Shown here one piece after another: positions 19,981 through 58,222 of a stretch of 64,000 nucleotides of DNA (positions within the stretch are counted from its first letter, which is position 1; every line of letters begins with the position of its first letter). Origin of the DNA: Candidatus Shapirobacteria bacterium (lineage in GTDB: Bacteria > Patescibacteriota > Microgenomatia > UBA12405); contig JBAYIT010000002.1 in the NCBI GenBank assembly GCA_041665485.1, positions 5,867 to 69,866 on the forward strand, given 5' to 3'. Position numbers and translations under genes: made by a program. The notes under the pieces are model-generated. The model had not been told where the DNA came from. It ran no database searches and saw only the letters and a list, made by a program, of their open reading frames with translations.

Positions 19981-20552
19981 ACCAAAAACCCAACCAATAA
20001 CACAGGGAGTATTATTATTGACTTTTGCATTAGTTGGCCAGTCTTTGATAAAGCGTATTGCCAATCACCACCCCACTTATAGTAAATTACCATATCAAGC
20101 TTTTGTCCCCTAGTCCCGAAAGCCAATTTTCCATCAACTATTTTGGTAGGCAAAATTTCAACTATGTATCTTCTGTCTTTGGAATTAGTAATTGTTTGAA
20201 AATCAAGCCGAGCTCGACTAGTATCACCAAAGTTGAATCCGCTAAATAACTGACGATAAATCTCCAAACCACCACTCTCTCTGATTACAATCTCGAGTTG
20301 ATCTCTACTTTCCAAGTTTGGGTTCTTAAACAATACGTCAACCCGATTTAAATTGTCATAACTTGACACAAATTCCGATTTGAACAATGACATATCAGCC
20401 AGCCTAATAAAAGTCAATTCTAAATTACTATTATCAGCAATCGCCAACTTTGACGGTATCAGATTAACCAAAAAGAAAACCCCAAAGTAAGAAACCAAGA
20501 TCAACAGCCAACCAATGATAACTTGCTTTGATTTACTTTTTAAATTTTGCAC
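19974..20552 (-). CDS. Small membrane-anchored protein (N-terminal TM helix plus a soluble domain of about 150 aa), unknown function
   Basis: 192 aa. N-terminal 'VIIGWLLILVSYFGVFFLVNLI' is the only hydrophobic segment. Embedded between GT-C genes in one operon. Confidence 0.5.
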   Translation of the reverse strand: MQNLKSKSKQVIIGWLLILVSYFGVFFLVNLIPSKLAIADNSNLELTFIRLADMSLFKSEFVSSYDNLNRVDVLFKNPNLESRDQLEIVIRESGGLEIYRQLFSGFNFGDTSRARLDFQTITNSKDRRYIVEILPTKIVDGKLAFGTRGQKLDMVIYYKWGGDWQYALSKTGQLMQKSIIILPVLLVGFLVW

Positions 20553-35237: not shown

Positions 35238-36151
35238 AACCCCTATTCTCTGTAATTATTCCCGTTCGTCATCCTACCGACTATCTTGAAGAGACAGTCA
35301 GGGCCCTCGACAAGCAGTCTCTTAACAACTTTGAACTCCTAGTTATTACCGACAAAATAGCCGGTAATGTCTCACCGGCAATTAAGCGTAATCTTGGTGC
35401 CAAGATGGCCAAAGGAGAATATCTTGCCTTTCTCGACGACGATTCTTATCCTTCTTCTGATTGGCTCAAAAACGCCCGAAAACACTTTTCCAAAAATATC
35501 ACTGCCGTCTGTGGCCCTTGTTTAACACCTCCAAGTGATGATGTTTTTCGCCAAGCGTCTGGTCTCGTTTGGTCTAGTTTTCTTGGCAGTGGTGGGGCAG
35601 GGGAGTATCGTAATAATATTGCCAAACCTCGATTTGTCGACGATTTTCCTTCTGTCAATTTGATAGTCAAAAAAAGTGATTTTTTAGAAGTTAAAGGCTT
35701 TAATACTCATCACTGGCCGGGAGAAGACACTATTCTTTGTTTAGATCTGACCCACAAACTTCATAAAAAAATCTTCTATCATCCTAGCGTTCAAGTTTTC
35801 CATCACCGCCGAAAAGTTATAATCCCCCATCTTCAACAAATCACCCGCTACGCTATTCATCGTGGTCTTTTTGCTAAAATCTACCCCCAAACTAGCCTTC
35901 GAATTGGTTACATTCTCCCCTCCCTCTTTATTATATATTTATTATTATTGCCGTTATTGCCAAAGACATTTTTAATTCCACTATTTATCTATCTGCTTCT
36001 ACTTCTATTTACTTTTTTCAATTTTATTTTAAAAAATAGCCTTATCGTTTCTCTTTTGGCTACTATCACCATTCCCATTACTCACCTTTATTATGGTATA
36101 TTTTTCATCCGTGGTTTATTCAAAAATGAACTAAAGTTTATCCCCCTATGA
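35234..36151 (+). CDS. GT2 glycosyltransferase with C-terminal TM helices
   Basis: 'LFSVIIPVRHPTDYLEETVRALDKQSL..FELLVITD' and 'FLDDDSYP' DXD. The C-terminal approx. 90 aa are strongly hydrophobic. Confidence 0.7.
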   Translation: MKPLFSVIIPVRHPTDYLEETVRALDKQSLNNFELLVITDKIAGNVSPAIKRNLGAKMAKGEYLAFLDDDSYPSSDWLKNARKHFSKNITAVCGPCLTPPSDDVFRQASGLVWSSFLGSGGAGEYRNNIAKPRFVDDFPSVNLIVKKSDFLEVKGFNTHHWPGEDTILCLDLTHKLHKKIFYHPSVQVFHHRRKVIIPHLQQITRYAIHRGLFAKIYPQTSLRIGYILPSLFIIYLLLLPLLPKTFLIPLFIYLLLLLFTFFNFILKNSLIVSLLATITIPITHLYYGIFFIRGLFKNELKFIPL

Positions 36152-37578
36152 AAATAGCTATTTCATATCCGCCGTTAGATTCATCAAAGGGCTCTGCCTT
36201 TCTTTCTCAAAATCGCCAGTTTCAGTGGACAAACACCGGTAATATTATTTATCCGGTTATCGCTGCTTATGCCGCTACTCTCCTCCAAAAACTTGGCCAT
36301 CAAGTATTTTGGGACGATGCCATTGTTCAAAAACTTGACTATCAAACCTGGCTTAATCGTCTTATCAGACAAAAACCAGATCTCATCGTTATTGAATCCA
36401 AAACTCCGGTTATTAAACTCCATTGGCAAATCATTAAAGACCTAAAAAGAAGGAATTTGGAAATTGGTAATTGGAAATTGGTTATTTGTTTAATTGGCGA
36501 TCATGTTTCCGCTCTCCCTGAAGAATCAATTAAAAATTCCCCCGTCGACTTCGTTTTAGTCGGCGGTGACTACGATTTCTTGCTTGAAAAACTAGTTAAT
36601 CTCTTGTCCAAAAATAAAATACCAAAAAACAAAATTATAAAAGTTAGCCCAACACACAATCTTGATTCGCTCCCCATAATCGACCGAAAACTAACCCAAT
36701 GGCATCTTTATGCCTACAACAACACCAACTATAAATATAAGCCTGGAGCCTACATCATGTCTGGTCGTGACTGCTGGTGGGGGAGTTGTACTTTCTGTTC
36801 TTGGACATCTCTTTTTCCCGGAAAAACATTCCGTAAATTCAGCGTCGACCACACTATCTCTGAAATCGAAAACTTAGTTAACAATTTTGGTGTCAAAGAA
36901 ATTTTTGATGACTCCGGCACTCTTCCCACTGGCCAATGGCTTGAAAACTTATGTCATCAATTAATTGATAAAAAGTTAAGTCAAAAAGTTAAACTCGGTT
37001 GCAATATGCGTTTTGGTGCTTTGAACCAAGAACAATACTATCTAATGAAACAAGCCGGCTTTCGTTTAGTGCTTTATGGCCTTGAATCGGCTAATCAAAA
37101 AACACTTGACTTAATTAATAAAAATGAAAAGACTTCTGATGCTATTAAAACCTTGCAAATGGCCAAAAAGGCCGGCCTTGAACCACATATCACCGTCATG
37201 ATCGGCTATCCTTGGGAAACTGAATCGGATGCCATCAAAACTCTCAATCTTGCTCGTAAAATTTTTCGAGAAGGGTTGGCCGATAGTATCCAAGCCACCC
37301 GAATTATTCCCTATCCGGGCACGGTTCTCTTTAATCAATCCCTCAAAAATAATTGGCTTTTATCTAAAGATTGGCAGGATTATGACATGCGCCAAAGTAT
37401 CATCAAATCACCCATCAGCTCTGCAAAACAAGAAAAACTAATACTTAGCCTTTTTAAGGGTGTTCTCACTCCTAATTTTCTTATTCGCAAAATCCTTTCC
37501 GTTCGGTCTCTTTATGATATTAAGTTTCTTACTGGCTATGCCATCAAATACCTCCAAAAAATCAGGGATTTTAAATAA
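36148..37578 (+). CDS. B12-binding-domain radical SAM enzyme (class B rSAM)
   Basis: N-terminal cobalamin-binding-like domain ('DFVLVGGDYDF') followed by 'SGRDCWWGSCTFCSW' (CxxxCxxC). 476 aa. Carries a GG(A/T)AATT heptamer array at 36453..36487. Confidence 0.7.
   Translation: MKIAISYPPLDSSKGSAFLSQNRQFQWTNTGNIIYPVIAAYAATLLQKLGHQVFWDDAIVQKLDYQTWLNRLIRQKPDLIVIESKTPVIKLHWQIIKDLKRRNLEIGNWKLVICLIGDHVSALPEESIKNSPVDFVLVGGDYDFLLEKLVNLLSKNKIPKNKIIKVSPTHNLDSLPIIDRKLTQWHLYAYNNTNYKYKPGAYIMSGRDCWWGSCTFCSWTSLFPGKTFRKFSVDHTISEIENLVNNFGVKEIFDDSGTLPTGQWLENLCHQLIDKKLSQKVKLGCNMRFGALNQEQYYLMKQAGFRLVLYGLESANQKTLDLINKNEKTSDAIKTLQMAKKAGLEPHITVMIGYPWETESDAIKTLNLARKIFREGLADSIQATRIIPYPGTVLFNQSLKNNWLLSKDWQDYDMRQSIIKSPISSAKQEKLILSLFKGVLTPNFLIRKILSVRSLYDIKFLTGYAIKYLQKIRDFK
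36453..36487 (+). repeat. Heptamer array GG(A/T)AATT x5
   Basis: ggaattt ggaaatt ggtaatt ggaaatt ggttatt, inside the rSAM gene 36148..37578 (encodes 'RNLEIGNWKLVI'). Same unit as 33523..33557. Confidence 0.75.
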
Positions 37579-39461: not shown

Positions 39462-40182
39462 TAAAAAGTTTGAATACGACTATTTCCACAAAGAAACTCA
39501 CAGTAACTACCGTGGTTATCACTATCGAGATGTCTATCCCGCCTTCAATTCATATGCCCATATTCTCGTTGGTATGTTAAACCCTAAAAAGATGCTTGAT
39601 ATTGGTTGTGCTAAAGGATACCTGGTTCTCGCTTTCCATAGATTGAAGGTCGATGCCTACGGAGTCGATATCTCTCGTTATGCTATAACCCATGGCCATC
39701 CTGCTATTAAATCCAAAATTAGGGTTCACAATATCGAAACAAAAAAATTACCCTATCCTGATGGTTATTTTGACCTTGTAACCTCATGTGAAGTAATTGA
39801 GCATGTTGTTAAACACAAGCTTGTTTTTAAGGAAATAAAGCGAGTCTTATCTCCCAACGGCATTGTTTTTTTAACTACTCCAGTTAAAAATATTTTAAAT
39901 AAAGACGGTGTCCCAGCCGACAAAACCCACGTCAGTGTTTTTCCCAGAAAAAAATGGCTAAAAATGTTTGATCAAATTTCATTGAAATCAATCAGTGGAC
40001 TTCGCTATCTCAAACTATCTCTAAATCTCACCAATACTATGTATCAAAACCCTGCCAAAAGCAATCTCGGCCAATTTTTGGAAAAATTGGGAGTAATTGG
40101 CCGAAAATTAAGATTTCTAATCCTATTTTATGATGTTTTTTTTCATTATCAAACTGATGTCTTTCTTCTTAAAAAAAGCTAA
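39388..40182 (+). CDS. Class I SAM-dependent methyltransferase (paralog of 37460..38266)
   Basis: 'KMLDIGCAKGYLVLAF', 'FDLVTSCEVIEHV', 'LSPNGIVFLTTP'. The N-terminus overlaps the upstream GT4 by about 70 nt in another frame, so the true start is probably later or non-ATG. Confidence 0.6.
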   Translation: MPVSLTGRVLPSKTLILLIQLIVDNKKFEYDYFHKETHSNYRGYHYRDVYPAFNSYAHILVGMLNPKKMLDIGCAKGYLVLAFHRLKVDAYGVDISRYAITHGHPAIKSKIRVHNIETKKLPYPDGYFDLVTSCEVIEHVVKHKLVFKEIKRVLSPNGIVFLTTPVKNILNKDGVPADKTHVSVFPRKKWLKMFDQISLKSISGLRYLKLSLNLTNTMYQNPAKSNLGQFLEKLGVIGRKLRFLILFYDVFFHYQTDVFLLKKS

Positions 40183-41324
40183 TTGCCCACCACCTTTTTA
40201 TAGACTTCCAGAGTTTGTTCAGCAAACCTTTGCCAAGAGAAACATTTCGCTCTTTTGATACTTTTTTTTATCATCTCTCTTCTTTTTTCTCCTTTTAAAT
40301 TAAGGATTTTATTCAATTCTTCCGCCATTTGGTTAGTGTCGTTTGGATCAACTAAAACAGCGGCATCCTTTACGACCTCTTTCATTGCCCCACAGTTACT
40401 TGTTATTACCGGACAACCACATGCCATCGATTCAACCAGAGGAAGTCCAAAACCTTCTTCAAATGAAGGGAAAAACATCACATCAGCCGCCGAATAATAT
40501 TTTGCCACTTCTTTTTCGGAAAAACTCTCTCGGTAAATAACTTTATTGTTCAAACGATGCTTCTTAAGCATGTTACCAATTTCACTAGTTTTATTTCCTA
40601 AACGGATTAAAACAACTTCATCATCCAGATCATATTTTTTCTTTAATATCGCCAATGCCTCAACCACACCAAGCACATTTTTTCTCGCCAATTCATTGCC
40701 AACATGAAGCACAATTTTCTTGCTTTTTGCTAGTTTCAATTCATCTCTAGCTCTATTTTTTGGATATGGCTTAAAAATCTCATGATTAACTCCGCTATAT
40801 ACAACACTTATCTTTTTCGGGTCAACACTTAATATTTTTATAGCTTCGCACTTGGTATATTCCGACACGCAAATAACTGCGTCCGCCTTTTTCAAGCGAA
40901 GAATACTCATTCTTATTAACCGACCATAAATTCCATCAAGAAATTTGTTACCTAACTTATCATGATATTTAAACTGTAGCACGTCAAACAAGGTCACCAC
41001 ATTGGGTCGATAATAATCGACCAAAAACCCCAACATCTGATTAGTAATATGATAAACATCATATCCCTTAGGAAGCCTAAATCTATCCACAAAATAAATT
41101 AAAAACCGGGAGATATTCGGGTGATCAAAATAGGCAAACTTTTGTAAAAAGTTAACCCCTTTATTTTCCACCCAGCCTAGCTCCCCCTTTTTTATTACAT
41201 GCGTACAAAATAAGTCAGCCTTCACTTTATCTATTTTTTTAAACATCATCCATAAAGCATAGGCGTTTCTTCCTGCACCGGAATATGGGGGAAAATTATT
41301 AATCAAGCACACTTTCATAATCAA
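40179..41324 (-). CDS. GT4 (GT-B fold) glycosyltransferase
   Basis: 'MFFPSFEEGFGLPLVESMACGCPVITSNCGAMKEVV' EX7E region. Convergent with the methyltransferase and overlaps it by 4 nt. Confidence 0.75.
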   Translation of the reverse strand: MIMKVCLINNFPPYSGAGRNAYALWMMFKKIDKVKADLFCTHVIKKGELGWVENKGVNFLQKFAYFDHPNISRFLIYFVDRFRLPKGYDVYHITNQMLGFLVDYYRPNVVTLFDVLQFKYHDKLGNKFLDGIYGRLIRMSILRLKKADAVICVSEYTKCEAIKILSVDPKKISVVYSGVNHEIFKPYPKNRARDELKLAKSKKIVLHVGNELARKNVLGVVEALAILKKKYDLDDEVVLIRLGNKTSEIGNMLKKHRLNNKVIYRESFSEKEVAKYYSAADVMFFPSFEEGFGLPLVESMACGCPVITSNCGAMKEVVKDAAVLVDPNDTNQMAEELNKILNLKGEKRREMIKKSIKRAKCFSWQRFAEQTLEVYKKVVGN

Positions 41325-42757
41325 AGATTGAGCCTTAACTTTAACTTCAATAAAACAAAATTAATCAAACGCTTAATCGGTCCAATTTTTATCATCCTAA
41401 AAATAACCTTAGTTAAAAAAGTTTTGTATATCAACCAAGACAGCAAAAAAGCTATTGCCAAACCGCCCAGCTTTCTCGTCATATCCCTTCTTTTTAATTC
41501 CATATTTACCCAACTTCCCAAAACTAATGCCTTTTTCCTCTCTTCGGCAGTAAAATCCTTTGTTTCAAAAATAGGCACAAATTCCAAATGGGCAATTGTG
41601 TTCAAATAATTATTCGGTTGTAATATAAATAGGCCATTATCTGTCACCCATTTAAACAATTCTGTCCCGGGAAATGGAATAAGATTATAAAAAGTTGCCG
41701 TACTTATTGGATATTTCAGCGCAAAGTCGATTGACTTTTTAAATGTTTTCGTCGTTTCTCCGGGCAAACCGACTATAAAAAACAACGATACCTCTAAGCC
41801 GACTTTCAACGCCATCTTAACCGCTTTTTCAATCTGCTTGTTCGTTTCACCCTTCTTAACTCTTACTAACACTTCTGAATCGAAAGTCTCCACTCCAAAG
41901 GCAATCGCTTTAAAGCCAACGTCTTTCATTCTCTTTAATAATTCCTCGGTAGACAAATCAGCCCTAATCCCATTACCGCATTGCATAAACAAGTCTTTCA
42001 TTTTAGCCTTTTCAATCAAATCAAAAAGTCTGTAGACTCTTTCTTTATTTACGGTAAAATTGTCGTCCTGAAAGTCAAAATCTCTATAACCAATGTCATA
42101 CCAGTATTTCAATTCGGAAAAAATATTTTCTGCAGAACGAAAACGATACCGTTTTCCCATAACCGTCGAAATTGGACAAAATATACACTGATAGGGGCAT
42201 CCTCGCGAAGAAATTATTGGCACCCTTTTCCGGGTATACTGGCTCATATCTACATTTTTATATTTTGGAAACGGGATTAAATCAAGTTCCTCGATAATCA
42301 TCGGCTGATTTATCTTCAATTTCTTATTCTGTCTATAAATTAGGCCATCAATCTGTTTTAGTGGTTTGCCTTTACAAAATTCAACTAAAGAGATTTCTGC
42401 CTCATTCATAAATCCATAGTCAGCCCCACTTTCTTTTACTGCCACTTCTTTTAAGGTCGAAACATGAGGACCACCAACAGCAATGGGTTTATCAAATTGT
42501 TTAAGAAAACCAACTATTTCATACGCTAAATTATGATAATAGGTCATCACCGTCACCCCAAATAAATCTGGTTTAAACTCTTCAATTGTTCTTCTCAGTA
42601 TTTCATAGCCATTACCCAATCGGAAATCCACCACTCGACTTTCAATTCCATTAACCTCAAGACTCTGTGATAAATAACCGATACCAGTATGAGGATGTGT
42701 CGGTAATCCATACCTATTTGGAAACGGTGGTATACAAAATAGAACTTTCTTAATCAT
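41321..42757 (-). CDS. B12-binding-domain radical SAM enzyme (class B rSAM; second copy)
   Basis: N-terminal B12-binding-like domain ('DLFGVTVMTYY...IAVGGPH') followed by 'SSRGCPYQCIFCPIS' (CxxxCxxC). 478 aa. Confidence 0.7.
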   Translation of the reverse strand: MIKKVLFCIPPFPNRYGLPTHPHTGIGYLSQSLEVNGIESRVVDFRLGNGYEILRRTIEEFKPDLFGVTVMTYYHNLAYEIVGFLKQFDKPIAVGGPHVSTLKEVAVKESGADYGFMNEAEISLVEFCKGKPLKQIDGLIYRQNKKLKINQPMIIEELDLIPFPKYKNVDMSQYTRKRVPIISSRGCPYQCIFCPISTVMGKRYRFRSAENIFSELKYWYDIGYRDFDFQDDNFTVNKERVYRLFDLIEKAKMKDLFMQCGNGIRADLSTEELLKRMKDVGFKAIAFGVETFDSEVLVRVKKGETNKQIEKAVKMALKVGLEVSLFFIVGLPGETTKTFKKSIDFALKYPISTATFYNLIPFPGTELFKWVTDNGLFILQPNNYLNTIAHLEFVPIFETKDFTAEERKKALVLGSWVNMELKRRDMTRKLGGLAIAFLLSWLIYKTFLTKVIFRMIKIGPIKRLINFVLLKLKLRLNL

Positions 42758-43868
42758 TTTTAATCACCTCTAAATATTCTTTTTCATACAATCTAATTTG
42801 TTTTTCCCAATCAAACATCAAAGATCTTTTCTTTGAATTGTTTGCCAATGTTTTTCTTAAATTACCATCACCAACAACCTCAATTAACTTATTTGTCAGA
42901 TCAACACTATCGCTCTTTCTAAAAAATAATCCGCTGTCAGCCACAACTTCCGGGCAAGCATCAACATCTGTTGCCACTATCGGCAATCCCGCCGCCATCG
43001 CTTCAATAAAAACTATTCCAAACCACTCTTCTTTACTGGTCAATAAAAAAAGATTGGCAACGCCATAGTAATACGGCAGTTCATCATCAGTCACGAAACC
43101 TAACATCTTTACGGTCGATCTCAATTTCCTTTTTTTAATTTCTATCTCGATCTCCCCCTTTGATATCCCGGTTCCCGCAATCATAAACTTTATCTTTCCA
43201 TTAATTTTTCTAATTCGATCGGCCGCTTTTATTAGGGTTAAAAGGTCCTTTCTCGGTTCGAGTCGGCAAACCGTTAAAATCATAAATTCGCCCTTCTTAA
43301 CCAACTTTGATCTTAAAGTCCCCAATCTCTCTTTATCTAAAACAAATTTTTTAAAATCAATCCCGATATAAATCAGTTTTGAAACTAAACCGTGCCTTTG
43401 TTTGTAAATCATAGCTTCATACTTTGAAATAGCGATTCTTTGATTGGCAAATTTCGCCGCTTGAGCCTCCATCGGTGTATACCCCTCTAATATAAAGATA
43501 AATGGCACACCAAATAACCATCGATAAAGCCTTGCTATTACAGCTTCTGTAACAAAATGAACTGAAATAACATCATATCTTTCACCGCCTAGTTTCAATT
43601 TTAACAGCATAATCATCGATTTAAACATGAAAAGTAAAGTATAAAAATATACCCGCCAGTCGTTATATGAATGATCTGTTTCCCTATAACTTTTACTAAT
43701 TCTTATAACTTTGATTGCCTTATCTAAGTCAGTCAACCTCTCGCCCTCTCTCGTCAATATTGTTATTGTATGCCCTAATTGACTAAAACGCTTTGCTAAC
43801 TCCAACAGATGCGTTTCTGTACCGCCACCATGAACCCCCACCCAACGATGAAAAAATAGAACTTTCAT
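42750..43868 (-). CDS. GT4 (GT-B fold) glycosyltransferase
   Basis: 'LLTSKEEWFGIVFIEAMAAGLPIVATDVDACPEVV'. Confidence 0.75.
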   Translation of the reverse strand: MKVLFFHRWVGVHGGGTETHLLELAKRFSQLGHTITILTREGERLTDLDKAIKVIRISKSYRETDHSYNDWRVYFYTLLFMFKSMIMLLKLKLGGERYDVISVHFVTEAVIARLYRWLFGVPFIFILEGYTPMEAQAAKFANQRIAISKYEAMIYKQRHGLVSKLIYIGIDFKKFVLDKERLGTLRSKLVKKGEFMILTVCRLEPRKDLLTLIKAADRIRKINGKIKFMIAGTGISKGEIEIEIKKRKLRSTVKMLGFVTDDELPYYYGVANLFLLTSKEEWFGIVFIEAMAAGLPIVATDVDACPEVVADSGLFFRKSDSVDLTNKLIEVVGDGNLRKTLANNSKKRSLMFDWEKQIRLYEKEYLEVIKND

Positions 43869-44827
43869 GTTTTAAATATTCCCTCCACATATCCGGTAAT
43901 ACCTTTAAGTTGTGAAACATCTTTTTTAGACACAGCCGAATACATCCAATAAACATTAAGCACTAAAATATTCAAGACAGCTCCCAATAAAGATCTTAAA
44001 CTTTTTGGTCGTAAATGCTTTCGGTGAAATATGCCGGTGTCTTTACCTATGTAATAGGCGTTTCTTGATGGTCCGATTCTTACCATATGTTTTACTTTTA
44101 TTTTAGGAGAAAAAATGAGCTTGTATTCAGCTTGCTTAATTCTCAAGAACAAATCTCCGTCAGCATGGTTAAAATTATATATCTCATCAAAGCCGCCAAG
44201 CTCATCTAACACCTCTCTTTTAATTCCCATGCTTGTCGTTGTCAATAAATCTATTTCAGCTCGAGAAAAATTAATCGATTCTGGCAAGGCTGTCCCAAAC
44301 GAATACGCTCCACTACCAAAGTACTTTCCCGGTACCGTAGGACAATTTTCCATTGCTAGATAAATATACGGACCAATAAACATTTTTCCCAGTACACTGG
44401 ATCTCATTTTTAAATATAAACTATGCATTTCACCGGTTGGGTAACAACTAGAAATTACTGGCCCACTAACAGCTGCAATTCTCTCATTCTTATCTAATTC
44501 AATCTTGATATTTTTTAACCAATCTTTGTCAGCCACTGCATCATCAGCCAAAAAAGCAACATATTCAGTTTTTACTTCCTTCCATCCTATGTTGAACAAA
44601 ACTGATAATCTTTTTATCGAGCAGACCACCACTTTCACCTCAATTTTATTCAAAAACAATTTAACAATCTTCTCAACACCAATCTGATTAACATTATTTT
44701 CAACCAAAACCACTTTAAAATTCCGATAACTCTGTTGCGCCAATGAATCCAGACATTTTTCCAAGTCAACACCTCTATAATTGTGTGGATAGGTATTAAC
44801 CACTACGGTAATCATTTCTTTAGTCAT
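43865..44827 (-). CDS. GT2 family glycosyltransferase
   Basis: 'ITVVVNTYPHNYRG..LEKCLDSLAQQSY.NFKVVLVEN' and 'LADDAVADKDW' are a GT-A-like N-terminal domain. Confidence 0.6.
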   Translation of the reverse strand: MTKEMITVVVNTYPHNYRGVDLEKCLDSLAQQSYRNFKVVLVENNVNQIGVEKIVKLFLNKIEVKVVVCSIKRLSVLFNIGWKEVKTEYVAFLADDAVADKDWLKNIKIELDKNERIAAVSGPVISSCYPTGEMHSLYLKMRSSVLGKMFIGPYIYLAMENCPTVPGKYFGSGAYSFGTALPESINFSRAEIDLLTTTSMGIKREVLDELGGFDEIYNFNHADGDLFLRIKQAEYKLIFSPKIKVKHMVRIGPSRNAYYIGKDTGIFHRKHLRPKSLRSLLGAVLNILVLNVYWMYSAVSKKDVSQLKGITGYVEGIFKT

Positions 44828-45980
44828 TTTTTAAGGCCTTTTGATACACGTCAACAGTTTTCTGTCCGACTACTTGCCAACCTCTTTTCCTAGCCGTTTT
44901 CAATGCCCCATTCTCTAGTTTCTCTTTCAACCCTTTCTCCAACACTAAACGATTCATTACGTTGGTTAAACTTTCTATGTTTCCAGATTGGCAATACAGA
45001 CCACTAACACCATCTTCAATCTCTTCCGACAACGTTCCGATCTTAGCTACCACCACCGCCTTCCCAAAACCCAATGCTATTGACAGAGGCAAGCTCGAAG
45101 AGATTGATCGCGTATATGGGAAAACTACAAAATTGGCCTTTTCGTAAAATTTATCTATTTCTTTCTGGCTCAAAAAACCGGTAAAGACAACTTTGTTCTT
45201 TAACTTTAACCTCGCCACCACCATTCTAAGATGCTTCATGTAGTCCTCATAACCACTTAAAACTCCGCCAGCAATTACTAATCGGGCCCTCGGACTGATT
45301 TTCAAATGTTTCTCGAAAGCAATTATAAGTTCATCCAAACCTTTTCTTTCCAGTACATAGCCAAAAAATAAAACCAAATGATTTTTAATTTTACCGCATT
45401 TTCTTTCTTCTATTCCTATTGTTACAACACTGACGCGACTTCTCATCCCATAGTCTCTTTGGCAAACCTCTTTCGTATAGTTCGAGTGGACAATAACCAT
45501 ATTTGATAATCTCCAAACCAATCCAAAAAAAACCCTGAAACTCAAGCCAACCACCACAGGATTACCTTTAATTTTCATCATTTTTAAAAAATCAGCATCA
45601 ATTTCCCTTATCGATGGAATAGCGTGAATTGTCACCACCACTTTTTTGCCAGAAATTCTTAATAACAAAATTGCCATAGGAAGAGTAAACAAACCAAGAA
45701 GTCTGCCGTACATATTAAATTCGTGTTGAAAATGAACCAGCTCGACTTTTTCTTCTAATGCTTTCTTCAAAATTAAAAACGGAAACAAAAAATTGTTTTG
45801 CCAAAAAACAACGATCTTTTTATCCTTTTCCTTCTTTGCGTAGTCAACATTTTCTAGGCAGTAATCAACCCATAACCGAGGATTACTTCCACTATCTACC
45901 AATCCCTTATACAAATATCTTGTATAGTGAGTTTCCGGTTGAATCGTCGAAACAATCGCAACTTTTACCTCTTTTTTCAT
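44820..45980 (-). CDS. GT4-like (GT-B fold) glycosyltransferase
   Basis: 'VVFPYTRSISSSLPLSIALGFGKAVVVAKIGTLSEEIEDGVSGL' C-terminal donor-binding-like region. Confidence 0.6.
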   Translation of the reverse strand: MKKEVKVAIVSTIQPETHYTRYLYKGLVDSGSNPRLWVDYCLENVDYAKKEKDKKIVVFWQNNFLFPFLILKKALEEKVELVHFQHEFNMYGRLLGLFTLPMAILLLRISGKKVVVTIHAIPSIREIDADFLKMMKIKGNPVVVGLSFRVFFGLVWRLSNMVIVHSNYTKEVCQRDYGMRSRVSVVTIGIEERKCGKIKNHLVLFFGYVLERKGLDELIIAFEKHLKISPRARLVIAGGVLSGYEDYMKHLRMVVARLKLKNKVVFTGFLSQKEIDKFYEKANFVVFPYTRSISSSLPLSIALGFGKAVVVAKIGTLSEEIEDGVSGLYCQSGNIESLTNVMNRLVLEKGLKEKLENGALKTARKRGWQVVGQKTVDVYQKALKND

Positions 45981-47674
45981 AATTTATTGAGCGCTTCTCT
46001 GGCCGGAGAATAGTTTGGCACTGCTTGCAATATATAGTTAAAAATCTTTTTAGCTTCTTCATTGTTGCCTGCCTCCGCCTGAACTACCCCCATTACATAA
46101 ATTGCCTGTAAACTATTTGGTTGTAATTCTACTATTTTTTTGGCATGAACTAAAGCTAAATCAATCCTTTTTTCCGTCAAATCAATTTGAGTTAATGATA
46201 AATATGTTTGAAACATTGCCGGATTAAGGCTCAAAGCTGTTTGATAACTCTCTCTGGCCAAGTCTAATCTTCCGGTTTTAAAAAATATATTCGCTCGATT
46301 GTGATATGCATCAGCATAATTTGGTTTAACCAATACCGATTGAGTAAAACCCCTAACAGCATTGTCATATTGCCCTAATTTGTCGTAGTCATCACCGATG
46401 TTATTCCATGCATTGTGAGAGTTTGGAGACACCTGACAGGTATTAACCCAAAGGTTGTGGTTAGTTTGCCAATCAATATTTCGATAGAAGGTTCTAATGC
46501 TATAAACAGACAGTATAACTACCAAAAAAAAGGGGCCCAACTTTACAAAACCATCTATAATCGAATCAAACAGATACCCCAACAACAAAGCTACTCCGGT
46601 CGACCCAAGAAAAATGTATCTTTCCGCCACCAACCAACTGACTTTTATTGGTGCCATTGAAGAAGCTGTTGCCGCAAAAATGAAAGCTAAACAAAAAAAT
46701 ATTTTTTTGTTCTTCCAGAAAAAATACACCAAAGACACCAAGTAAGTAATTAATATGGACCAGTTTAACCAAACTGGAAAAATATACATTGTATGATAAA
46801 GCGTTAAATCAGCCGGAAACAAAGCAATTTGGAGATACTTAGCTGCAGCCGTCGGATATTGAAAAAGCGGATTATAAAAAATTTCACCAGAACCGTTAGT
46901 TCCTGAATTAACTTCGTTTATTCTATTAAAAATGTCATTTTTCAGCATTAGAAAAAGAATCGACCCAACTAAAAAGATCAAGATCAAGTACCACTTAATA
47001 AACAATCCTTTACTAATATTTTTTGACAAGGTCAAGACGTATATTGGCAAAATCAAGAATATGGCCAAGGAACGAACCGGTTCAAAATATGTTGCCACAG
47101 GAAGAAAGGCAAAAAAGTAATAAAGGTATTTCTTATTCTTTGTTGCATCATAAGCAGCAAAGAATAACAATAAAGCAAACATCCCAATCGCATTTAGCAA
47201 ATACGGTTTGCCTGAAATCCAAGAAACAGCTTCTACATGAACAGGTAAAACAGAAAACATTAAAACAGATATTTTTGCCACGTTTTTTCCGAAAGAAATA
47301 TTGGCAAAAATAAAAAACAGTAAAATCGACAATAAATACAAAGCAGTATTAGCAAAGTGAAAAGGGAAACTACTACCAACACCAAAAATCATAGCGATAA
47401 TGGCGTTTATTACTGATGGAGAACTTCTAAAACTTGAAAAAAGAATTGACAAATCTTTCACGTTTGAATTCTGAGTTATCGCCGCATAATCATCCGACAC
47501 AAAGTTGCCATTCAGCGAATTAAAATACAGTAAAAACACACCAACACACAAAGCCAACAAAAACTTCCAGTTTTCTTTAATAATCCCTCTAATTCCTAAA
47601 AAAGATTCGACCGGTCTGTCCACAATTTTTAAAACTTCTGCTCTTTTTATTCGTTTCAACCTCTTCTGTGACAT
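45977..47674 (-). CDS. Membrane protein with N-terminal polytopic (GT-C/O-antigen-ligase-like) domain and C-terminal TPR repeats (TMTC-like architecture)
   Basis: About 10 TM segments in the first roughly 390 aa, then TPR repeats ('AWNNIGDDYDKLGQYDNAVRGFTQSV...PNYADAYHNRANIFFKTGRLDLARESYQTALSLNP...'). Confidence 0.65.
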   Translation of the reverse strand: MSQKRLKRIKRAEVLKIVDRPVESFLGIRGIIKENWKFLLALCVGVFLLYFNSLNGNFVSDDYAAITQNSNVKDLSILFSSFRSSPSVINAIIAMIFGVGSSFPFHFANTALYLLSILLFFIFANISFGKNVAKISVLMFSVLPVHVEAVSWISGKPYLLNAIGMFALLLFFAAYDATKNKKYLYYFFAFLPVATYFEPVRSLAIFLILPIYVLTLSKNISKGLFIKWYLILIFLVGSILFLMLKNDIFNRINEVNSGTNGSGEIFYNPLFQYPTAAAKYLQIALFPADLTLYHTMYIFPVWLNWSILITYLVSLVYFFWKNKKIFFCLAFIFAATASSMAPIKVSWLVAERYIFLGSTGVALLLGYLFDSIIDGFVKLGPFFLVVILSVYSIRTFYRNIDWQTNHNLWVNTCQVSPNSHNAWNNIGDDYDKLGQYDNAVRGFTQSVLVKPNYADAYHNRANIFFKTGRLDLARESYQTALSLNPAMFQTYLSLTQIDLTEKRIDLALVHAKKIVELQPNSLQAIYVMGVVQAEAGNNEEAKKIFNYILQAVPNYSPAREALNKL

Positions 47675-47693: not shown

Positions 47694-48683
47694 CTAGCCG
47701 CCTACAACCACCTTAATCAGTGACAATCTCTTCAACATGAGAACCAATAATACCGATAACCCCCAGGCCATTAACCATTGGCTAACAATCCACCAAAAAG
47801 TCATTCCAACTCCCATAAAAGAATTTTTCTGTTTTAAAACCAAATCAGTTATCAATGGGTGAATTAAGTAAACCCCAAACGAAACTTCACCCAACACCTT
47901 AACTAGTCGGCCAAGTTTATTCTTTTTCAAATTTTTAATTGCTAAAAACACCGCCACTGCCTGCAATCCAACCCATGGCCAAAGTCTATCGAAGGCTATC
48001 TGGCCCCCATCAGTTGCCCCATGCAAATATAAAGCATGACTATTCACTGCAAACATTAACAAACCTAGAGCAACTACCACCAACAAATATATTTTTCTTA
48101 TCTTTATCTTTTCCAATAAATTGCCAAGTAAATAATATCCAATATAAGGCACAAAAATTACTATCGGCCAATCAGCTTTTCGCCACCAGGCCAAATAATA
48201 TCCAAGAATATAAATAAAACAAAACGTTAACGACACCACTAAAGCAAATTTTTTGTTTTTAATTATTCTTAAGATTGGCGTCACTGCATACAATCCCAAC
48301 GCCACCATCAAATAATATAAATGGTAATAAGTTTGCGAATACTTCCAAAAAGTTTCTAATCCAGACACTAAACTTCCTCGGTTAAAAACTAGAAAATAAA
48401 ATATATTCCAAAAAATCAATGCCGGCAATATTCTCCCCATCCTTTTTCTTAAAAACACCTTACCACCTTCCCACCTGTAGCTTTTTCCCAAAAATATTGC
48501 CCCCGAAATCATGATAAACAATGGCACCACAAAGCGCGTCATTGATGAAACCAACAGCCCCATTAGTACTGATCCTCTGTCTGAAAATTGATAGTTATTA
48601 ATCACCTTGGCGCAGATGTGCAATAGCACCGCTGCCCCACTTGCCACCACCCTCAACCAATCATAATTTTCTCTCTCTTCCAT
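47694..48683 (-). CDS. Acyltransferase family 3 (OatA/WecH-like) O-acyltransferase
   Basis: N-terminus 'ENYDWLRVVASGAAVLLHI' matches the acyltransferase-3 signature (R..F(D/W).LR..A...V...H). About 10 TM segments, 329 aa. Confidence 0.65.
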   Translation of the reverse strand: MEERENYDWLRVVASGAAVLLHICAKVINNYQFSDRGSVLMGLLVSSMTRFVVPLFIMISGAIFLGKSYRWEGGKVFLRKRMGRILPALIFWNIFYFLVFNRGSLVSGLETFWKYSQTYYHLYYLMVALGLYAVTPILRIIKNKKFALVVSLTFCFIYILGYYLAWWRKADWPIVIFVPYIGYYLLGNLLEKIKIRKIYLLVVVALGLLMFAVNSHALYLHGATDGGQIAFDRLWPWVGLQAVAVFLAIKNLKKNKLGRLVKVLGEVSFGVYLIHPLITDLVLKQKNSFMGVGMTFWWIVSQWLMAWGLSVLLVLMLKRLSLIKVVVGG

Positions 48684-48705
48684 CCCAAAATGCTATCATA
48701 CAAAA

Positions 48706-49506
48706 GTGCTTGATCTAATTTCTGAAATCAAAAACATTTTTAAGTGGCGCGAACTTCTCTTTCAAATGGTTGGCCGGGAAGTCAAAGCCCGCTACAAACA
48801 ATCAATTCTCGGCTACTTTTGGGTAGTCCTCAATCCATTAGCTCAAATGCTGGTCATGAGCTTTGCTTTTTCTCTAATTTTACGCATTCCTACCAACGCC
48901 GCTTCAAATATTCCCTACAGCATTTTTCTTTTTGTTGCCCTTCTTCCCTGGAATCTCTTTGCCAACTCTTTATCTTCTTCAGCCCGATCTCTAGTCGACG
49001 CATCCTCGCTTATTACCAAGATATATTTTCCTCGAACCATTCTAGTTGTTGCCGCCATTGTTGCAAAAATCGTCGACTTTCTTTTCGCCTTGATTATCCT
49101 CATTGGTTACATGGTTATTTATCAAATTCCCATCAATACAAATATCCTATGGGTCTTTCCAATCTTTGTAATCCAACAAATCTTTACCATCGGGCTTTCC
49201 TTTTTCTTCGCCGCCGCCAATCTTCTCTATCGTGATATTCAATATCTTCTCACTCTCCTTCTAACTCTCTGGATGTATCTTACCCCCATTATCTATCCGG
49301 CCGACATTGTCCCTCCACAATATAAAATTTTCTTCCAACTCAACCCTCTCTCGGTAATTGTTAATGCCTACCGTCAAGTAGTTTTAGGTGGTTCTCCACC
49401 AAATTACACCAGTCTCTTTATTGCCCTTTCTTTGTCTTTACTAACTTTCACATTAGGACTTTCTTATTTTAAATCCCGCGAAAAAATCTTCGCTGATAAT
49501 ATCTAA
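48706..49506 (+). CDS. wzm: ABC-2 type polysaccharide/teichoic-acid export permease (Wzm/TagG-like)
   Basis: 'ELLFQMVGREVKARYKQSILGYFWVVLNPLAQMLVMSFAF' is the typical ABC-2 N-terminus. 6 TM segments, 266 aa. The ORF 48744..49235 is an out-of-frame shadow. Confidence 0.75.
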   Translation: MLDLISEIKNIFKWRELLFQMVGREVKARYKQSILGYFWVVLNPLAQMLVMSFAFSLILRIPTNAASNIPYSIFLFVALLPWNLFANSLSSSARSLVDASSLITKIYFPRTILVVAAIVAKIVDFLFALIILIGYMVIYQIPINTNILWVFPIFVIQQIFTIGLSFFFAAANLLYRDIQYLLTLLLTLWMYLTPIIYPADIVPPQYKIFFQLNPLSVIVNAYRQVVLGGSPPNYTSLFIALSLSLLTFTLGLSYFKSREKIFADNI

Positions 49507-49507
49507 T

Positions 49508-50236
49508 ATGACAAAATCTATTATTGAGTTTGTTAATGTCCAAAAAGACTTTAATCTTACCTCTCAAAAAACTTTCAAAGAGTTTTTGCCGGCTCTATTT
49601 CTTGGTGAAAAAACTCACGATTCTTTCACCGCTCTTAGTGACGTTTCTTTTACTATTAATGCCGGAGAAACCATTGGCATTATCGGCCCTAATGGTTCAG
49701 GCAAATCAACTATTCTAAAACTTGTCGCCAAAGTTATGTCTCCAACCTTCGGCAAAGTTGAAGTTCACGGTAAAGTATCGCCTCTTATCGAACTTGGTGC
49801 TGGTTTTCACCCTGAACTTACCGGTAAAGAAAATGTCTATTTAAGTGGTGCCATCTTAGGACTCAAAAAAAGACAGATCGACGAACATTTTAAATCAATT
49901 GTTGACTTTGCCGGGCTTGAAGAATTTATTAATCAGCCCATCAAACACTTTAGCTCCGGCATGTATATGCGCCTAGCTTTCGCCGTTGCCGTTCACGTTG
50001 ACCCAGAAATTCTTATTGTTGACGAAATTTTGGCTGTTGGTGACGCTCCTTTTCAGGCTAAATGCTTCACTAAAATGGAAGAATTCAAAAAGAAGGGAGT
50101 CACTATTCTTTTTGTCTCCCACTCTCTCAATACCATTCAATCTTTTTGCACTCGCGTGCTCTACATCAAACAAGGAAAGCTAATCGCCGATGGCCCCAGT
50201 TCTCAAGTCTGTCAGCAATATCAAAATGACCAATAA
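49508..50236 (+). CDS. wzt: ABC transporter ATP-binding protein (Wzt/TagH-like, short form without a C-terminal carbohydrate-binding domain)
   Basis: Walker A 'GIIGPNGSGKST', signature 'FSSGMYMRLAFA', Walker B 'ILIVDEILAVGD'. Translationally coupled to the permease (2-nt gap). Confidence 0.8.
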   Translation: MTKSIIEFVNVQKDFNLTSQKTFKEFLPALFLGEKTHDSFTALSDVSFTINAGETIGIIGPNGSGKSTILKLVAKVMSPTFGKVEVHGKVSPLIELGAGFHPELTGKENVYLSGAILGLKKRQIDEHFKSIVDFAGLEEFINQPIKHFSSGMYMRLAFAVAVHVDPEILIVDEILAVGDAPFQAKCFTKMEEFKKKGVTILFVSHSLNTIQSFCTRVLYIKQGKLIADGPSSQVCQQYQNDQ

Positions 50237-51794: not shown

Positions 51795-52059
51795 CAACCA
51801 ATATCTTGAATATATGAATTTAACCACCGACGCCAAGCGAGCTGTCTACGAACTAGTAAGTCCAGAAATAGGAAACAACAGCTACTTCCTCCGTCAATAT
51901 TTGTTTGGTATTTCTCAATACTTTTCCCACTTAAAAAACTTTCGCCAGTCTTTTAACCTCGACTTACTTGAATCCTCAAACACCAATCCAAAAATCAAGG
52001 CAGAATATTTACTCGACAACAACCGAATAATTTTGAATTTTATTAAAAAATCTTCTTAA
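51787..52059 (+). CDS. Small hypothetical protein (90 aa)
   Basis: ORF overlapping the upstream stop by 8 nt. No recognisable motif. Confidence 0.35.
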   Translation: MNNNQYLEYMNLTTDAKRAVYELVSPEIGNNSYFLRQYLFGISQYFSHLKNFRQSFNLDLLESSNTNPKIKAEYLLDNNRIILNFIKKSS

Positions 52060-53020
52060 ACAGCCTCGTCAACTTTTCTTCGCTATGCCTTAGTCGCATA
52101 TTTTTTTCCTCAATCATCGCCACATCTTCAACTATCGTTTTAACCTTTGCTTTTTGGCATATTTTTAGCAATTCTGAATGCTCTAGGCGGTAAAAATCCA
52201 TCACCTTTTTTAATTTTCTTGTTGGTAATATCCCCAAATCAGCCATAACCACCAAGTCAAACGGTTTCTTCATTTTTATATATTTTTCAAACACCTCAAC
52301 AATTTCTTCTTGACTAAACCCTTTATTTTCAAAAGCCGTTGTCATTAAATTTGTCAGCAATATCTTCTTGGCCCTCGATCTTCTATAAGCTTGGGCCACC
52401 CCCTCCACTAAAAAATTAATCACCACCGATCCATACATACTTCCCGGGCAAACAATAATCACCTCTGCCTTACCTAAAGCCTCAATCACCTCACAATTTA
52501 TTGCCACTTTAGGCTTTAGCCATACGTCTTTAACCTGATCATCAGACATTCTTAGCTCATCCAGCCTGTGTTCTCCCTCATAACTTCTTCCACTTCTTGT
52601 TTTAAAACAAACATTACTTGGCTCCAAAGACACCGGTATCACTCTCCCGCAAATCTTAGCCCCGGTTAGTTGAGAAAATAAAGTGTCCACACGGCTCAAG
52701 TTTCCTACTTTTTCCGCCATAAATTGAAAAAATATGTTGCCAAAATTTCTATCTCTGCCATCTCTAAATTTGAGCATTTCCTCCCAAATCTCTTTTTGTT
52801 TCCCATTTTTCCATAAAGATATCATCGATCGCCAATAGTCAGAAAACGCCAAGATGTTTCCTCTCTCATCAGTCCGAATTCTGCCGCTATCTCCTCCGCT
52901 ATCAAACGGCGTTACTATCGAATCAATGTTCTCAAACCCGGCCCGAATCAATGCCCGATTGACAATCGGCATCCCCGACCCTCCGCCAATTGTGCAAATT
53001 CTTTTCCCCAAAGTCATCAT
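52043..53020 (-). CDS. YvcK/GlmR/CofD-family protein (UPF0052; 2-phospho-L-lactate transferase-like, UDP-sugar-binding gluconeogenesis factor family)
   Basis: N-terminal 'ICTIGGGSGMPIVNRALIRAGF...IVTPFDSGGDSGRIR' matches the GGGTG...L..L..../DDGGSSG signature of the YvcK/CofD family. Confidence 0.65.
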   Translation of the reverse strand: MMTLGKRICTIGGGSGMPIVNRALIRAGFENIDSIVTPFDSGGDSGRIRTDERGNILAFSDYWRSMISLWKNGKQKEIWEEMLKFRDGRDRNFGNIFFQFMAEKVGNLSRVDTLFSQLTGAKICGRVIPVSLEPSNVCFKTRSGRSYEGEHRLDELRMSDDQVKDVWLKPKVAINCEVIEALGKAEVIIVCPGSMYGSVVINFLVEGVAQAYRRSRAKKILLTNLMTTAFENKGFSQEEIVEVFEKYIKMKKPFDLVVMADLGILPTRKLKKVMDFYRLEHSELLKICQKAKVKTIVEDVAMIEEKNMRLRHSEEKLTRLFKKIF

Positions 53021-57229: not shown

Positions 57230-58222
57230 TTATTCACCATCTTTACAAGATAAATTATTTGCCCATTCACGATTATCAAGATACCATTCCACACAATTTT
57301 TAATTCCCTGATCAAAATCAACAGACGGTTCCCAACCAAACAATTTTTTTGCTTTGTTACCATTTGCCAAAGTGTCTTTTATATCTGCCTTCGAAAATTC
57401 TCGATACTCAATAACTGCTTTTTTATCAGAATATCTTTGAATTAAGTCAATCAGATATTTGAGCGAGTAAGAGGCTAAGCCACCACCCAAGTTGACAATT
57501 TCATAACCCAAAGGTTTCAAAGCCATAATCGTACCTTTGGCAATGTCATCAACATAAGTAAAATCCCGAGTTTGAGTTCCGTCACCATTTATATAAATCG
57601 GTTTTCCCTCAATGATATTTTTAATAAACTTAAAAATAACCATGTCCGGTCTACCCGCTGGTCCATAAACAGTAAAATATCTAACAATACTAATATCCAA
57701 CCCATAAAGATAATGATACGTGTAAGCCATAACCTCAGCCGATTTTTTGGATGCCGCATATGGAGAAATTGGTGAATTGACTGGCAGTGTTTCCAAAAAC
57801 GGCATCGGCTGACCTGCATATAAAGAAGAGGTTGAAGCCAACACCATTTTCTTAACCCCATACACCTTCATTAACTCCATCAAATTTAAAGTACCCATCG
57901 CATTTGTTCTCATATAAACAAAAGGATTCTCCATACTATATCTCACCCCAGCTCTAGCCGCCAAATTAATAACTCCGTCAAATTGATTTTTTCTAAATAG
58001 ACCTTCTAAATCATCAAAGTTTTCAATATCAATTTTTTTAAAACTAAAATTTTTATTTTTTGTCAATAAACCTAATCGGTATTCTTTTAATCTCACATCA
58101 TAATAGTCATTCATATTATCTACCCCTACTACACTGTCACCTCGCTCTAGCAGTTGTTGACAAACTTTTTGGCCAATAAACCCAGATGACCCAGTTACCA
58201 ATATGTTCATTTTCATATTCAA
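57230..58222 (-). CDS. NAD-dependent epimerase/dehydratase (extended SDR; UDP-sugar 4-epimerase, GalE/UDP-glucuronate 4-epimerase-like)
   Basis: Rossmann 'ILVTGSSGFIGQKV', 'VDNMNDYYDVRLK', catalytic 'YAASKKSAEVMAYTY' (YxxxK). 330 aa. Confidence 0.8.
   Translation of the reverse strand: MNMKMNILVTGSSGFIGQKVCQQLLERGDSVVGVDNMNDYYDVRLKEYRLGLLTKNKNFSFKKIDIENFDDLEGLFRKNQFDGVINLAARAGVRYSMENPFVYMRTNAMGTLNLMELMKVYGVKKMVLASTSSLYAGQPMPFLETLPVNSPISPYAASKKSAEVMAYTYHYLYGLDISIVRYFTVYGPAGRPDMVIFKFIKNIIEGKPIYINGDGTQTRDFTYVDDIAKGTIMALKPLGYEIVNLGGGLASYSLKYLIDLIQRYSDKKAVIEYREFSKADIKDTLANGNKAKKLFGWEPSVDFDQGIKNCVEWYLDNREWANNLSCKDGE

Follow-up and report, generated by a model that had tools for sequence, protein, structure and literature searches.

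A bacterial protein with the layout of TMTC

A 64-kb stretch of DNA from a Candidatus Shapirobacteria bacterium (contig JBAYIT010000002.1; the whole stretch, positions 1-64000, is called the window below) carries on its minus strand a gene (45977..47674) for a 565-residue protein in which a polytopic membrane domain is followed by C-terminal tetratricopeptide repeats (TPRs). The locus raises the question of whether this protein is a bacterial member of the TMTC glycosyltransferases and, if so, what it would glycosylate. TMTC enzymes form family GT105 of CAZy and are known from animals and protists. TMTC1-4, the protein O-mannosyltransferases of the endoplasmic reticulum for cadherins and protocadherins, have the same layout, a glycosyltransferase domain of fold C (GT-C) with 11 transmembrane (TM) helices and then non-cytoplasmic TPRs. 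To our knowledge, experimental work on TMTC enzymes is confined to animals, in which their defects lead to brain malformation and hearing loss. The initial annotation had pointed out the TMTC-like layout. We found that the likeness goes beyond layout to specific sequence homology: judged by its sequence, the membrane domain is TMTC-type and not a generic GT-C domain, and we hold the assignment of family, fold and topology, taken by itself, to be highly probable. The protein belongs to a divergent, compact TMTC subfamily centered on bacteria of the candidate phyla radiation (CPR) and is not a new kind of system.

The gene starts with ATG and ends with a stop codon at 45977-45979; given that the N-terminus MSQK... 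is invariant in its homologues (n = 73, alignment), the start is fixed. A 100% identical protein (P0001) is labeled at NCBI 'MAG: tetratricopeptide repeat protein [Candidatus Shapirobacteria bacterium]'. The polytopic N-terminus and the C-terminal TPRs were confirmed by the open reading frame (ORF) list, Pfam, hydropathy and an AlphaFold2 model of the full length (mean predicted local distance difference test score of 86.3; predicted template modeling score, pTM, of 0.83). A hydropathy scan revealed about 11 hydrophobic segments in the N-terminal ~400 residues, and the model has 11 TM helices between residues 36 and 398. The basic tail of residues 1-35 (47570..47674), in which 9 of the first 30 residues are lysine or arginine, is predicted to be cytoplasmic by hydropathy and charge bias. 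It leads into the predicted 11-TM GT-C catalytic domain (residues 36-398; 46481..47569), delimited by the model helices, Foldseek, a family hidden Markov model (HMM) and hhalign; this in turn is joined by a linker (residues 399-419; 46418..46480) to the TPR domain (residues 420-565; 45980..46417).

The membrane domain is homologous to TMTC

Residues 1-418 of the protein have no Pfam or NCBIfam match. Pfam missed the membrane domain because its sole TMTC-specific model, DUF1736, covers only the divergent loop that links TM7 to TM8. The family HMM was built from the membrane domains only of 25 diverse relatives (alignment A3), and the reference TMTC N-domains, together with aligned segments of ArnT, PglB, Pmt1 and STT3B, were taken from the 'grand alignment' in the supplement to Eisenhaber et al. 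(PMC7801869). The HMM matched nine animal TMTC N-domains with 98-134 bits (E = 3e-37 to 2e-26 for a nominal database of 10^6); ArnT, Pmt1 and PglB were not detected by it, and the PMT, PMT_2 and DUF2142 paralogues of the window reached at most 16 bits. The target sequence alone scored up to 33 bits against the TMTC N-domains. Alignment of the family with TMTC by hhalign gave a probability of 99.95% and E = 1.7e-38 over 361 columns, spanning residues 37-400. That the protein is one more PMT_2 paralogue of the island was rejected on the low score (≤16 bits) of the family HMM on the PMT and PMT_2 genes of the window.

The homology can be followed by eye. The target 'LYFNSLNGNFVSDDYAAITQN' matches TMTC 'Y.NSL.G.FV.DD..AI..N', the family consensus 'LFAVHP..TE.V' matches TMTC 'LFAVHPIHTEAV', and the target 'LVAERYIFLGS' matches TMTC 'VVAERVLYMPS'. 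The boxes common to TMTC and the target family comprise Y.NSL.G.FV.DD..AI..N (motif M1), P.HL.N...H and LFAVHP.HTEAV, as well as a glutamate in external loop (EL) 3, an NP in EL4, VAER..Y (M7) and a terminal RT..RN.

Sequence searches of the PDB, by the target sequence on its own and by a profile of the membrane domain only, returned no match for this domain. Searches with full-length profiles or models were dominated by TPR proteins, and we trimmed them to the membrane domain as a remedy. The membrane-only AlphaFold2 model (pTM of 0.82) was compared with the PDB by Foldseek, and all top 19 matches were GT-C structures, with TM-scores of 0.41-0.52, probabilities of 0.94-1.0 and modest E-values (5e-3 or weaker). 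They were STT3, PglB, AglB, ArnT and DPY19, followed by EmbA/B/C; WaaL and Wzy structures were absent from the matches of this model. The comparison that the initial annotation had asked for between GT-C enzymes and the fold of Wzy and O-antigen ligases therefore comes out on the GT-C side, in agreement with the TMTC homology found by HMM and hhalign. A Wzy or O-antigen ligase was rejected given these GT-C-only matches and the absence of a Wzy_C match to the target in Pfam. The PDB sequence and structure searches with the target family brought up no TMTC structure.

Pfam likewise gave no PMT or PMT_2 match for the target, which also lacks an MIR domain. Among 25 distant family members, seven matched PMT_2 weakly and one matched Wzy_C weakly (E = 0.0034), and DUF2723 was not among the Pfam matches of 25 family members. 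ArnT (GT83), PMT (GT39) and the PMT_2 enzymes, of which the window holds about 10 paralogues, share with the target the GT-C fold and an acidic motif in loop 1, and their use of a polyprenyl-phosphate-linked monosaccharide may by analogy extend to it; they differ in that ArnT and Pmt1 are undetected by the family HMM and in the MIR domain that the target lacks. WaaL, PglL and WsaB, which carry Wzy_C and act in Wzm/Wzt or Wzx pathways, are also polytopic outer-face enzymes of ABC-exporter glycan loci, but their fold and family differ from those of the target. Some bacterial Wzy_C-type members also carry TPRs.

The conserved residues lie on the predicted outer face

Topology was predicted from the distribution of lysine and arginine. 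The predicted inside loops comprise residues 129-131, 179-182 (KNKK), 217-223, 320-324 (WKNKK) and 376-378, and the predicted outside regions comprise EL1 (56-102, with a DD pair), EL2, EL3 (with E198), EL4 (251-300), EL5 (341-357, with ERY), the linker and the TPRs. The density of lysine plus arginine across 118 relatives is 0.44 in the predicted inside loops versus 0.07 outside, and across 73 close homologues it is 0.47 versus 0.06. Given this charge bias, the TPRs are predicted to be extracytoplasmic, and a cytoplasmic TPR region, which would speak against the initial annotation, is disfavored by the prediction. The topology follows the same 11-TM plan as that deduced for TMTC.

TMTC motifs were taken as defined in PMC7801869 and located in the target by the hhalign alignment. 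Seven residues, D61, D62, W152, P287, R352, Y353 and R398, are invariant in the 118 sequences, the mean identity of which is 26%. The acidic pair D61-D62 (47489..47494) lies directly after TM1 within 'NSLNGNFVSDDYAAI', aligns with FV(H/Y/F)DD of TMTC1-4 (M1) and is putatively catalytic; it is invariant in the 25 diverse relatives as well. The acidic loop motif sought after the initial annotation is thus present, and the positive-inside rule puts it in outer loop 1. At the outer end of TM3, LPVHVEAV (residues 143-150; 47225..47248) is the counterpart of TMTC 'HPIHTEAV', aligned by hhalign with 'LFAVHPIHTEAV'. P144, H146 and E148 of the 'HP.HTEAV' box are kept in the target, and among the relatives P144 is invariant and E148 nearly so. 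In EL3, E198 of 'FEPVR' (residues 197-201; 47072..47086) aligns with the glutamate of M4, KE(T/Q)xxT; the lysine position of M4 is F197 in the target, and many relatives read S-E-K instead.

The long outer loop EL4 (residues 251-300; 46775..46924) is, by model and hhalign, the positional equivalent of the DUF1736 loop of TMTC. It contains an amphipathic helix (269-285) as well as Y267-N268-P269 and L290-T-L-Y293-H294, and of the TMTC 'DNP' only NP (N268-P269) is kept. In EL5 (residues 341-357; 46604..46654), E351-R352-Y353 corresponds to M7, ERxxY, by alignment to TMTC 'VVAERVLY'. The motif reads E351-R352-x-x-F355 in the target, where the family consensus has tyrosine at 355; R352 and Y353 are invariant and E351 is nearly invariant among the relatives. 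R352 is predicted to be the arginine that binds the donor phosphate, equivalent to the arginine of TMTC, PglB and STT3.

The linker between TM11 and the TPRs, NIDWQTNHNLWVNTCQVSPNS, is the most conserved stretch of the protein, with 94% mean identity to the target in 72 close homologues and many invariant columns. In the TPR domain, Pfam TPR_1 matched with E = 2.2e-18 (65.7 bits against a cut-off of 27.8 bits), a dozen other TPR models including TPR_2 and TPR_8 matched over residues ~420-565, and the nine helices of the AlphaFold2 model from 420 to 564 form four TPR pairs and a capping helix. This region has structural matches to consensus TPR proteins and to the TPRs of OGT. Mean identity to the target among the close homologues is 86% in EL5, 79% in TPR1, 72% in TPR2 and 72% in EL4, compared with 49% in the TM core, 49% in TPR3 and 35% in TPR4. 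All of the most conserved parts are on the predicted outer face, which points to one conserved functional surface formed by the active-site loops, the linker and TPR1-2. Such a surface is what one expects of a platform that presents an acceptor.

A compact subfamily centered on CPR bacteria

An exhaustive HMMER search with only the membrane domain returned 5,720 cluster representatives (50% identity) at E ≤ 1e-3, of which 162 were found at E ≤ 1e-30; nearly all are 500-620 residues long. The target family itself, with ~565-620 residues and four TPRs, is concentrated in CPR bacteria of the Microgenomates group. Its close subfamily comprises 73 loci in species-representative genomes, essentially all of them from Shapirobacteria, Woesebacteria and unclassified Patescibacteria.

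Contigs with 44-53% identical homologues are often titled 'uncultured Gammaproteobacteria' (L008-L010, L012-L014, L020, L041 and others), and single ones are titled 'Bacteroidales' or 'Candidatus Methanoperedens'. Given that the distribution of homologues is otherwise exclusively CPR, these titles look like placeholder or mis-binned labels. Most of the distant members (P0128-P0270, 25-35% identity) carry an extra cytoplasmic N-terminal segment of ~40-60 residues, 'MKLTKKQKKFIKKN..LS.EEIAK.L......V..YLKK', which is absent from the target and weakly matches the helix-turn-helix models Sigma70_r4_2, HTH_28, UPF0122, HTH_40 and HTH_11.

Literature searches for bacterial or CPR TMTC-like enzymes, or for GT-C enzymes with TPRs, brought up passing remarks, nothing on CPR and no experimental work on any bacterial member, which bears out the view that bacterial counterparts are essentially uncharacterized. 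Eisenhaber et al. 2021 (PMC7801869), where bacterial counterparts are mentioned in passing, noted full-length prokaryotic 'TMTC-like' homologues, e.g. AMJ42_05695 of Deltaproteobacteria bacterium DG_8. That protein has ~770+ residues, is 24% identical to TMTC3 over ~690 residues and has a long TPR region (PMC7801869). Compared by description only, proteins of this type resemble the target family in that a TMTC-type domain is followed by TPRs.

The predicted activity is transfer of a sugar on the outer face

On balance, we favor the reading that the protein is an outer-face GT-C transferase that would use a polyprenyl-phosphate donor and take its acceptor, most likely a protein serine or threonine, on the linker and TPR1-2. 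The steps can be drawn from the established GT-C mechanism (ArnT, PMT, STT3/PglB and the TMTC models). A polyprenyl-phosphate-linked sugar would be bound in the outer leaflet with R352 holding its phosphate, the acceptor hydroxyl would be activated by D61/D62, and the sugar would pass to an acceptor that the platform of linker and TPR1-2 holds at the membrane surface. By analogy with TMTC1-4, to which the domain is homologous, and with the function of the TPRs of TMEM260, the acceptor would most likely be serine or threonine of a secreted or surface protein. Human TMEM260 (DUF2723; PDB 9RQL), a GT-C O-mannosyltransferase with 11 TM helices, a catalytic aspartate in loop 1 and a luminal TPR domain, is the functional precedent for a TPR domain that selects the acceptor: according to the TMEM260 preprint, experiments show that the TPR domain alone suffices for specific binding of acceptor peptide. 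TMEM260 differs in having a luminal Rossmann-like domain, where the target has only a 21-residue linker between TM11 (~398) and the TPRs (420).

Compared with TMTC, the target is of bacterial (CPR) origin, its EL1 is shorter and lacks M2, M3 is changed to [KR]-P-Y and M5 to Y-H, its acceptor cannot be a cadherin, its donor would be a bacterial polyprenyl phosphate in place of dolichyl phosphate, and its gene belongs to a Wzm/Wzt glycan locus. The TPRs of TMTCs number about eight to twelve, compared with four in the target. The protein O-glycosyltransferase with acceptor-recognizing TPRs that the initial annotation proposed is supported in its architecture and evolution; its function is read from homology, and three points weaken it: the acceptor is presumed, M2, M3 and M5 are not kept, and among close relatives the genes most strongly linked to it are those of the Wzm/Wzt exporter.

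The locus adds evidence of its own. We analyzed synteny in 25 species-representative loci of the close subfamily that are flanked by at least 8 kb on either side. Wzm (median identity 75%) was present in 24 of these loci and Wzt also in 24, and both lie near the homologue of the target in loci L001 and L004 as well; the radical S-adenosylmethionine (SAM) enzyme with a B12-binding domain was found in 24 and YvcK in 20, the latter at a median gap of ~41 bp and directly adjoining the homologue in most relatives (e.g. L001 and L004). Individual genes for GT2 and GT4 family glycosyltransferases and for acyltransferases recurred in 0-13 of the 25. Given that Wzm/Wzt, YvcK and the radical SAM enzyme are constant while GT2 and GT4 genes vary, the enzyme in Shapirobacteria and Woesebacteria is part of the conserved machinery of a surface-glycan locus with variable glycan-building enzymes.

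Several observations weigh against the favored reading. The predicted function follows from homology, and the acceptor protein is presumed. DUF1736 gave no Pfam match at E ≤ 1 in the target or in 25 relatives, and the TPR domain of the target consists of four repeats only. Of the seven published TMTC motifs, three are not conserved. The TMTC models of PMC7801869 assign mannose contacts to M2 and M3 and a metal contact to M5. By hhalign, M2 (SHKSYRP) is not kept in the target, with its shorter EL1; M3 (RxD) is replaced by K156-P-Y158, TMTC 'GRAD' aligning with 'SGKPY'; and M5 (DW) is replaced by Y293-H294. Handling of donor sugar and metal may therefore differ from TMTC, and the automatic name is not secure ('protein O-mannosyl-transferase', given to several homologues by JGI, whereas NCBI has 'tetratricopeptide repeat protein' only). 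Since residues modeled as mannose contacts in TMTC are replaced, the donor sugar need not be mannose and could be another sugar. A polyprenyl-phosphate sugar synthase of the GtrB, DPM1 or ArnC type was not assignable next to the target by NCBIfam or PDB comparison.

Conservation of the locus is also confined. In a distant branch of 25 loci with 21-35% identity to the target, Wzm was found in one, Wzt in four, YvcK in two and the B12-binding radical SAM enzyme in 11 (median gap ~0.5 kb). We rejected the linkage to Wzm/Wzt as a family-wide signature on these counts, and since it is not family-wide, it may partly reflect the shared ancestry of closely related genomes. For the four nearest neighbors in 23 distant-branch loci (83 ORFs), GT2 (23), Radical_SAM (8), TPR (5) and GT4 (3) are the most frequent Pfam families. 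Where the link to Wzm/Wzt does hold, a glycan acceptor accounts for it at least as naturally as a protein acceptor does.

Alternative acceptors and donors

An enzyme of the same class with a glycan acceptor is a possible but less probable explanation. It would add sugars to, or extend, a polyprenyl-diphosphate-linked polymer or a cell-wall glycopolymer after export by Wzm/Wzt, and its TPRs would serve as a scaffold towards exporter or polymer. Precedents are GacL for streptococcal rhamnan, AftA/EmbA/EmbB for mycobacterial galactan and YfhO/GtlB for teichoic acids. Wzm and Wzt are no more than a few kb away in 24 of the 25 close loci and in L001 and L004, the Wzm of the window best matches a galactan exporter model of mycobacterial type and its Wzt best matches TagH, and the operon partners of the target (GT4, GT2, acyltransferase) are typical of polysaccharide loci. 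The replaced mannose-contact motifs of TMTC and the lack of any LCP or Wzy_C enzyme in the window are also in keeping with a glycan acceptor. Against it, protein O-mannosyltransferases, and not enzymes of the Emb, ArnT or PMT_2 type, are by far the closest homologues. Furthermore, the enzyme is conserved while the cytoplasmic glycosyltransferases, and with them presumably the glycan structure, vary, which is unusual for an enzyme that adds side chains, and the link to Wzm/Wzt disappears in the distant branch.

It is unlikely, by our estimate, that the enzyme attaches the exported product of Wzm/Wzt itself, transferring the polyprenyl-diphosphate-linked glycan en bloc onto serine or threonine of a surface protein, recognized by the platform of linker and TPR1-2, or onto another anchor. 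It would then be a TMTC-type O-oligosaccharyltransferase doing the job of Wzy_C-type enzymes (PglL, WsaB, WaaL). This would account for its place in the conserved set with Wzm, Wzt and YvcK while the glycan-building glycosyltransferases vary, and for the absence of a Wzy_C, WaaL or LCP candidate from the 64-kb island, although another part of the genome could encode the ligase. Among the best structural matches are the en-bloc transferases STT3, PglB and AglB, but at scores of this size the order in which Foldseek ranks GT-C families does not discriminate between them. The arginine of M7 is common to pyrophosphate-binding enzymes of the STT3/PglB type; the characterized close relatives (TMTC, PMT, ArnT), however, all use single sugars linked to a monophosphate, and the Wzm/Wzt link is subfamily-specific. 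If such attachment were true in Shapirobacteria and Woesebacteria, the protein would represent a bacterial forerunner of the eukaryotic TMTC enzymes with a different class of donor, and a protein-glycan ligase of a new kind, different from PglL, WsaB and WaaL.

A membrane domain of the Wzy/O-antigen-ligase type, or one that is a non-catalytic anchor for a TPR scaffold, is very improbable: the weak Wzy_C match in a single distant relative and the lack of a curated family match in the target stand against the GT-C structures that make up all top 19 Foldseek matches, with no WaaL or Wzy among them, the highly significant TMTC homology over the full domain, and the invariance of DD, ER.Y and other outer-loop residues in 118 sequences, which argues for catalysis.

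Returning to the favored reading, a compact bacterial TMTC would offer a tractable system in which to study structure and mechanism. The locus suggests that CPR bacteria, whose genomes are tiny but whose glycosylation islands are very large, use this enzyme to decorate wall polymers or surface proteins from outside. As a conserved core, YvcK, the TMTC-like gene, Wzm/Wzt and the B12-binding radical SAM enzyme constitute a concrete, testable module.

Organization of the operon and its neighbors

By Pfam, the order of the minus-strand operon is Acyl_transf_3, the TMTC-like gene, GT4, GT2, GT4, B12-binding radical SAM and GT4. The genes downstream of the TMTC-like gene (40179..45980, all on the minus strand) overlap or abut: GT4 (44820-45980), GT2 (43865-44827), GT4 (42750-43868), B12-binding radical SAM (41321-42757) and GT4 (40179-41324). 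The stop of the TMTC-like gene and the start of the first GT4 overlap by 4 bp (ATGA), and no terminator-like sites were found between the operon genes. Upstream lies the gene for the membrane acyltransferase Acyl_transf_3 (47694..48683, minus strand; Pfam E = 8e-31), which stands next to the homologue of the target in only one of the 25 close loci.

Divergent from this operon, on the plus strand, are Wzm, an ABC-2 permease (48706-49506), and a Wzt/TagH-like ATPase (49508-50236), both assigned by Pfam; the pair is predicted to be the exporter of a lipid-linked glycan. Their best NCBIfam matches, the galactan exporter Wzm/RfbD and TagH/Wzt, are both below the curated cut-offs. Between the predicted divergent starts of Acyl_transf_3 (minus strand, 48683) and Wzm (plus strand, GTG at 48706) there are only 22 bp (48684-48705). 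This is too short for two promoters, so one of the starts may be mis-set or transcription may begin inside a neighboring gene. The YvcK-like gene (52043..53020, minus strand; Pfam CofD; NCBIfam CofD_related/YvcK, E = 4e-43), a CofD-related member of a family of UDP-GlcNAc-binding proteins, is 4.4 kb from the TMTC-like gene, with the acyltransferase, Wzm, Wzt and a GT2 in between.

The neighboring GT2 proteins were considered as donor synthases, which was not supported: their matches are generic GT-A matches, and the GT2 at 50437 matches GtrB/ArnC only marginally. The adjacent GT2s lack a membrane anchor at the C-terminus; a C-terminal hydrophobic anchor was present only in three distant GT2s of the island. 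A second gene for a B12-binding radical SAM enzyme lies at 36148-37578 (plus strand) in the window, and locus L004 has four such genes in a row together with a SPASM radical SAM gene. The best NCBIfam matches of the radical SAM enzymes are HpnJ, ApyD and PhpK, far below the cut-offs.

The wider glycosylation island

The window is one glycosylation island, with ~14 GT2, 9 GT4 and 11 GT-C genes, several SAM methyltransferases, at least two radical SAM enzymes and Wzm/Wzt. GT-C genes were called by Pfam matches to PMT_2, PMT, GT87, DUF2142 or PTPS_related, and besides the TMTC-like gene they are the ORFs starting at 674, 1878, 13406, 18403, 21750, 24713, 26316, 27869, 29424, 30997 and 55491. With at least 10 other GT-C ORFs, the description of a locus full of GT-C enzymes holds. 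Five of the GT-C-type genes stand in tandem on the plus strand with overlapping ends (24713-26377, 26316-27872, 27869-29464, 29424-31034 and 30997-32607) and look like a paralogue array. Six ORFs encoding 400-550 residues (5001-6644, 11316-12638, 15758-17119, 17039-18406, 20533-21747 and 23393-24655), several of them interleaved with PMT_2 genes, had no Pfam match even at E ≤ 1, save for a marginal Alg6_Alg8 match in one, and may be further unrecognized membrane enzymes. A search of the 64-kb window for LCP or Wzy_C enzymes found none.

The island also holds a Wzx-like flippase (3554-5011) and an NDP-sugar epimerase/dehydratase (57230-58222). For a small GT2 (32608-33390, plus strand), the sole match at E ≤ 1e-12 was to the N-terminal part of the model for the SunS family peptide S-glycosyltransferase; with E = 1.6e-16 it is far below the cut-off and probably reflects generic GT-A similarity. 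Every 2-kb bin of the window has a negative GC skew, and the cumulative skew falls monotonically to -7.65, regardless of gene strand.

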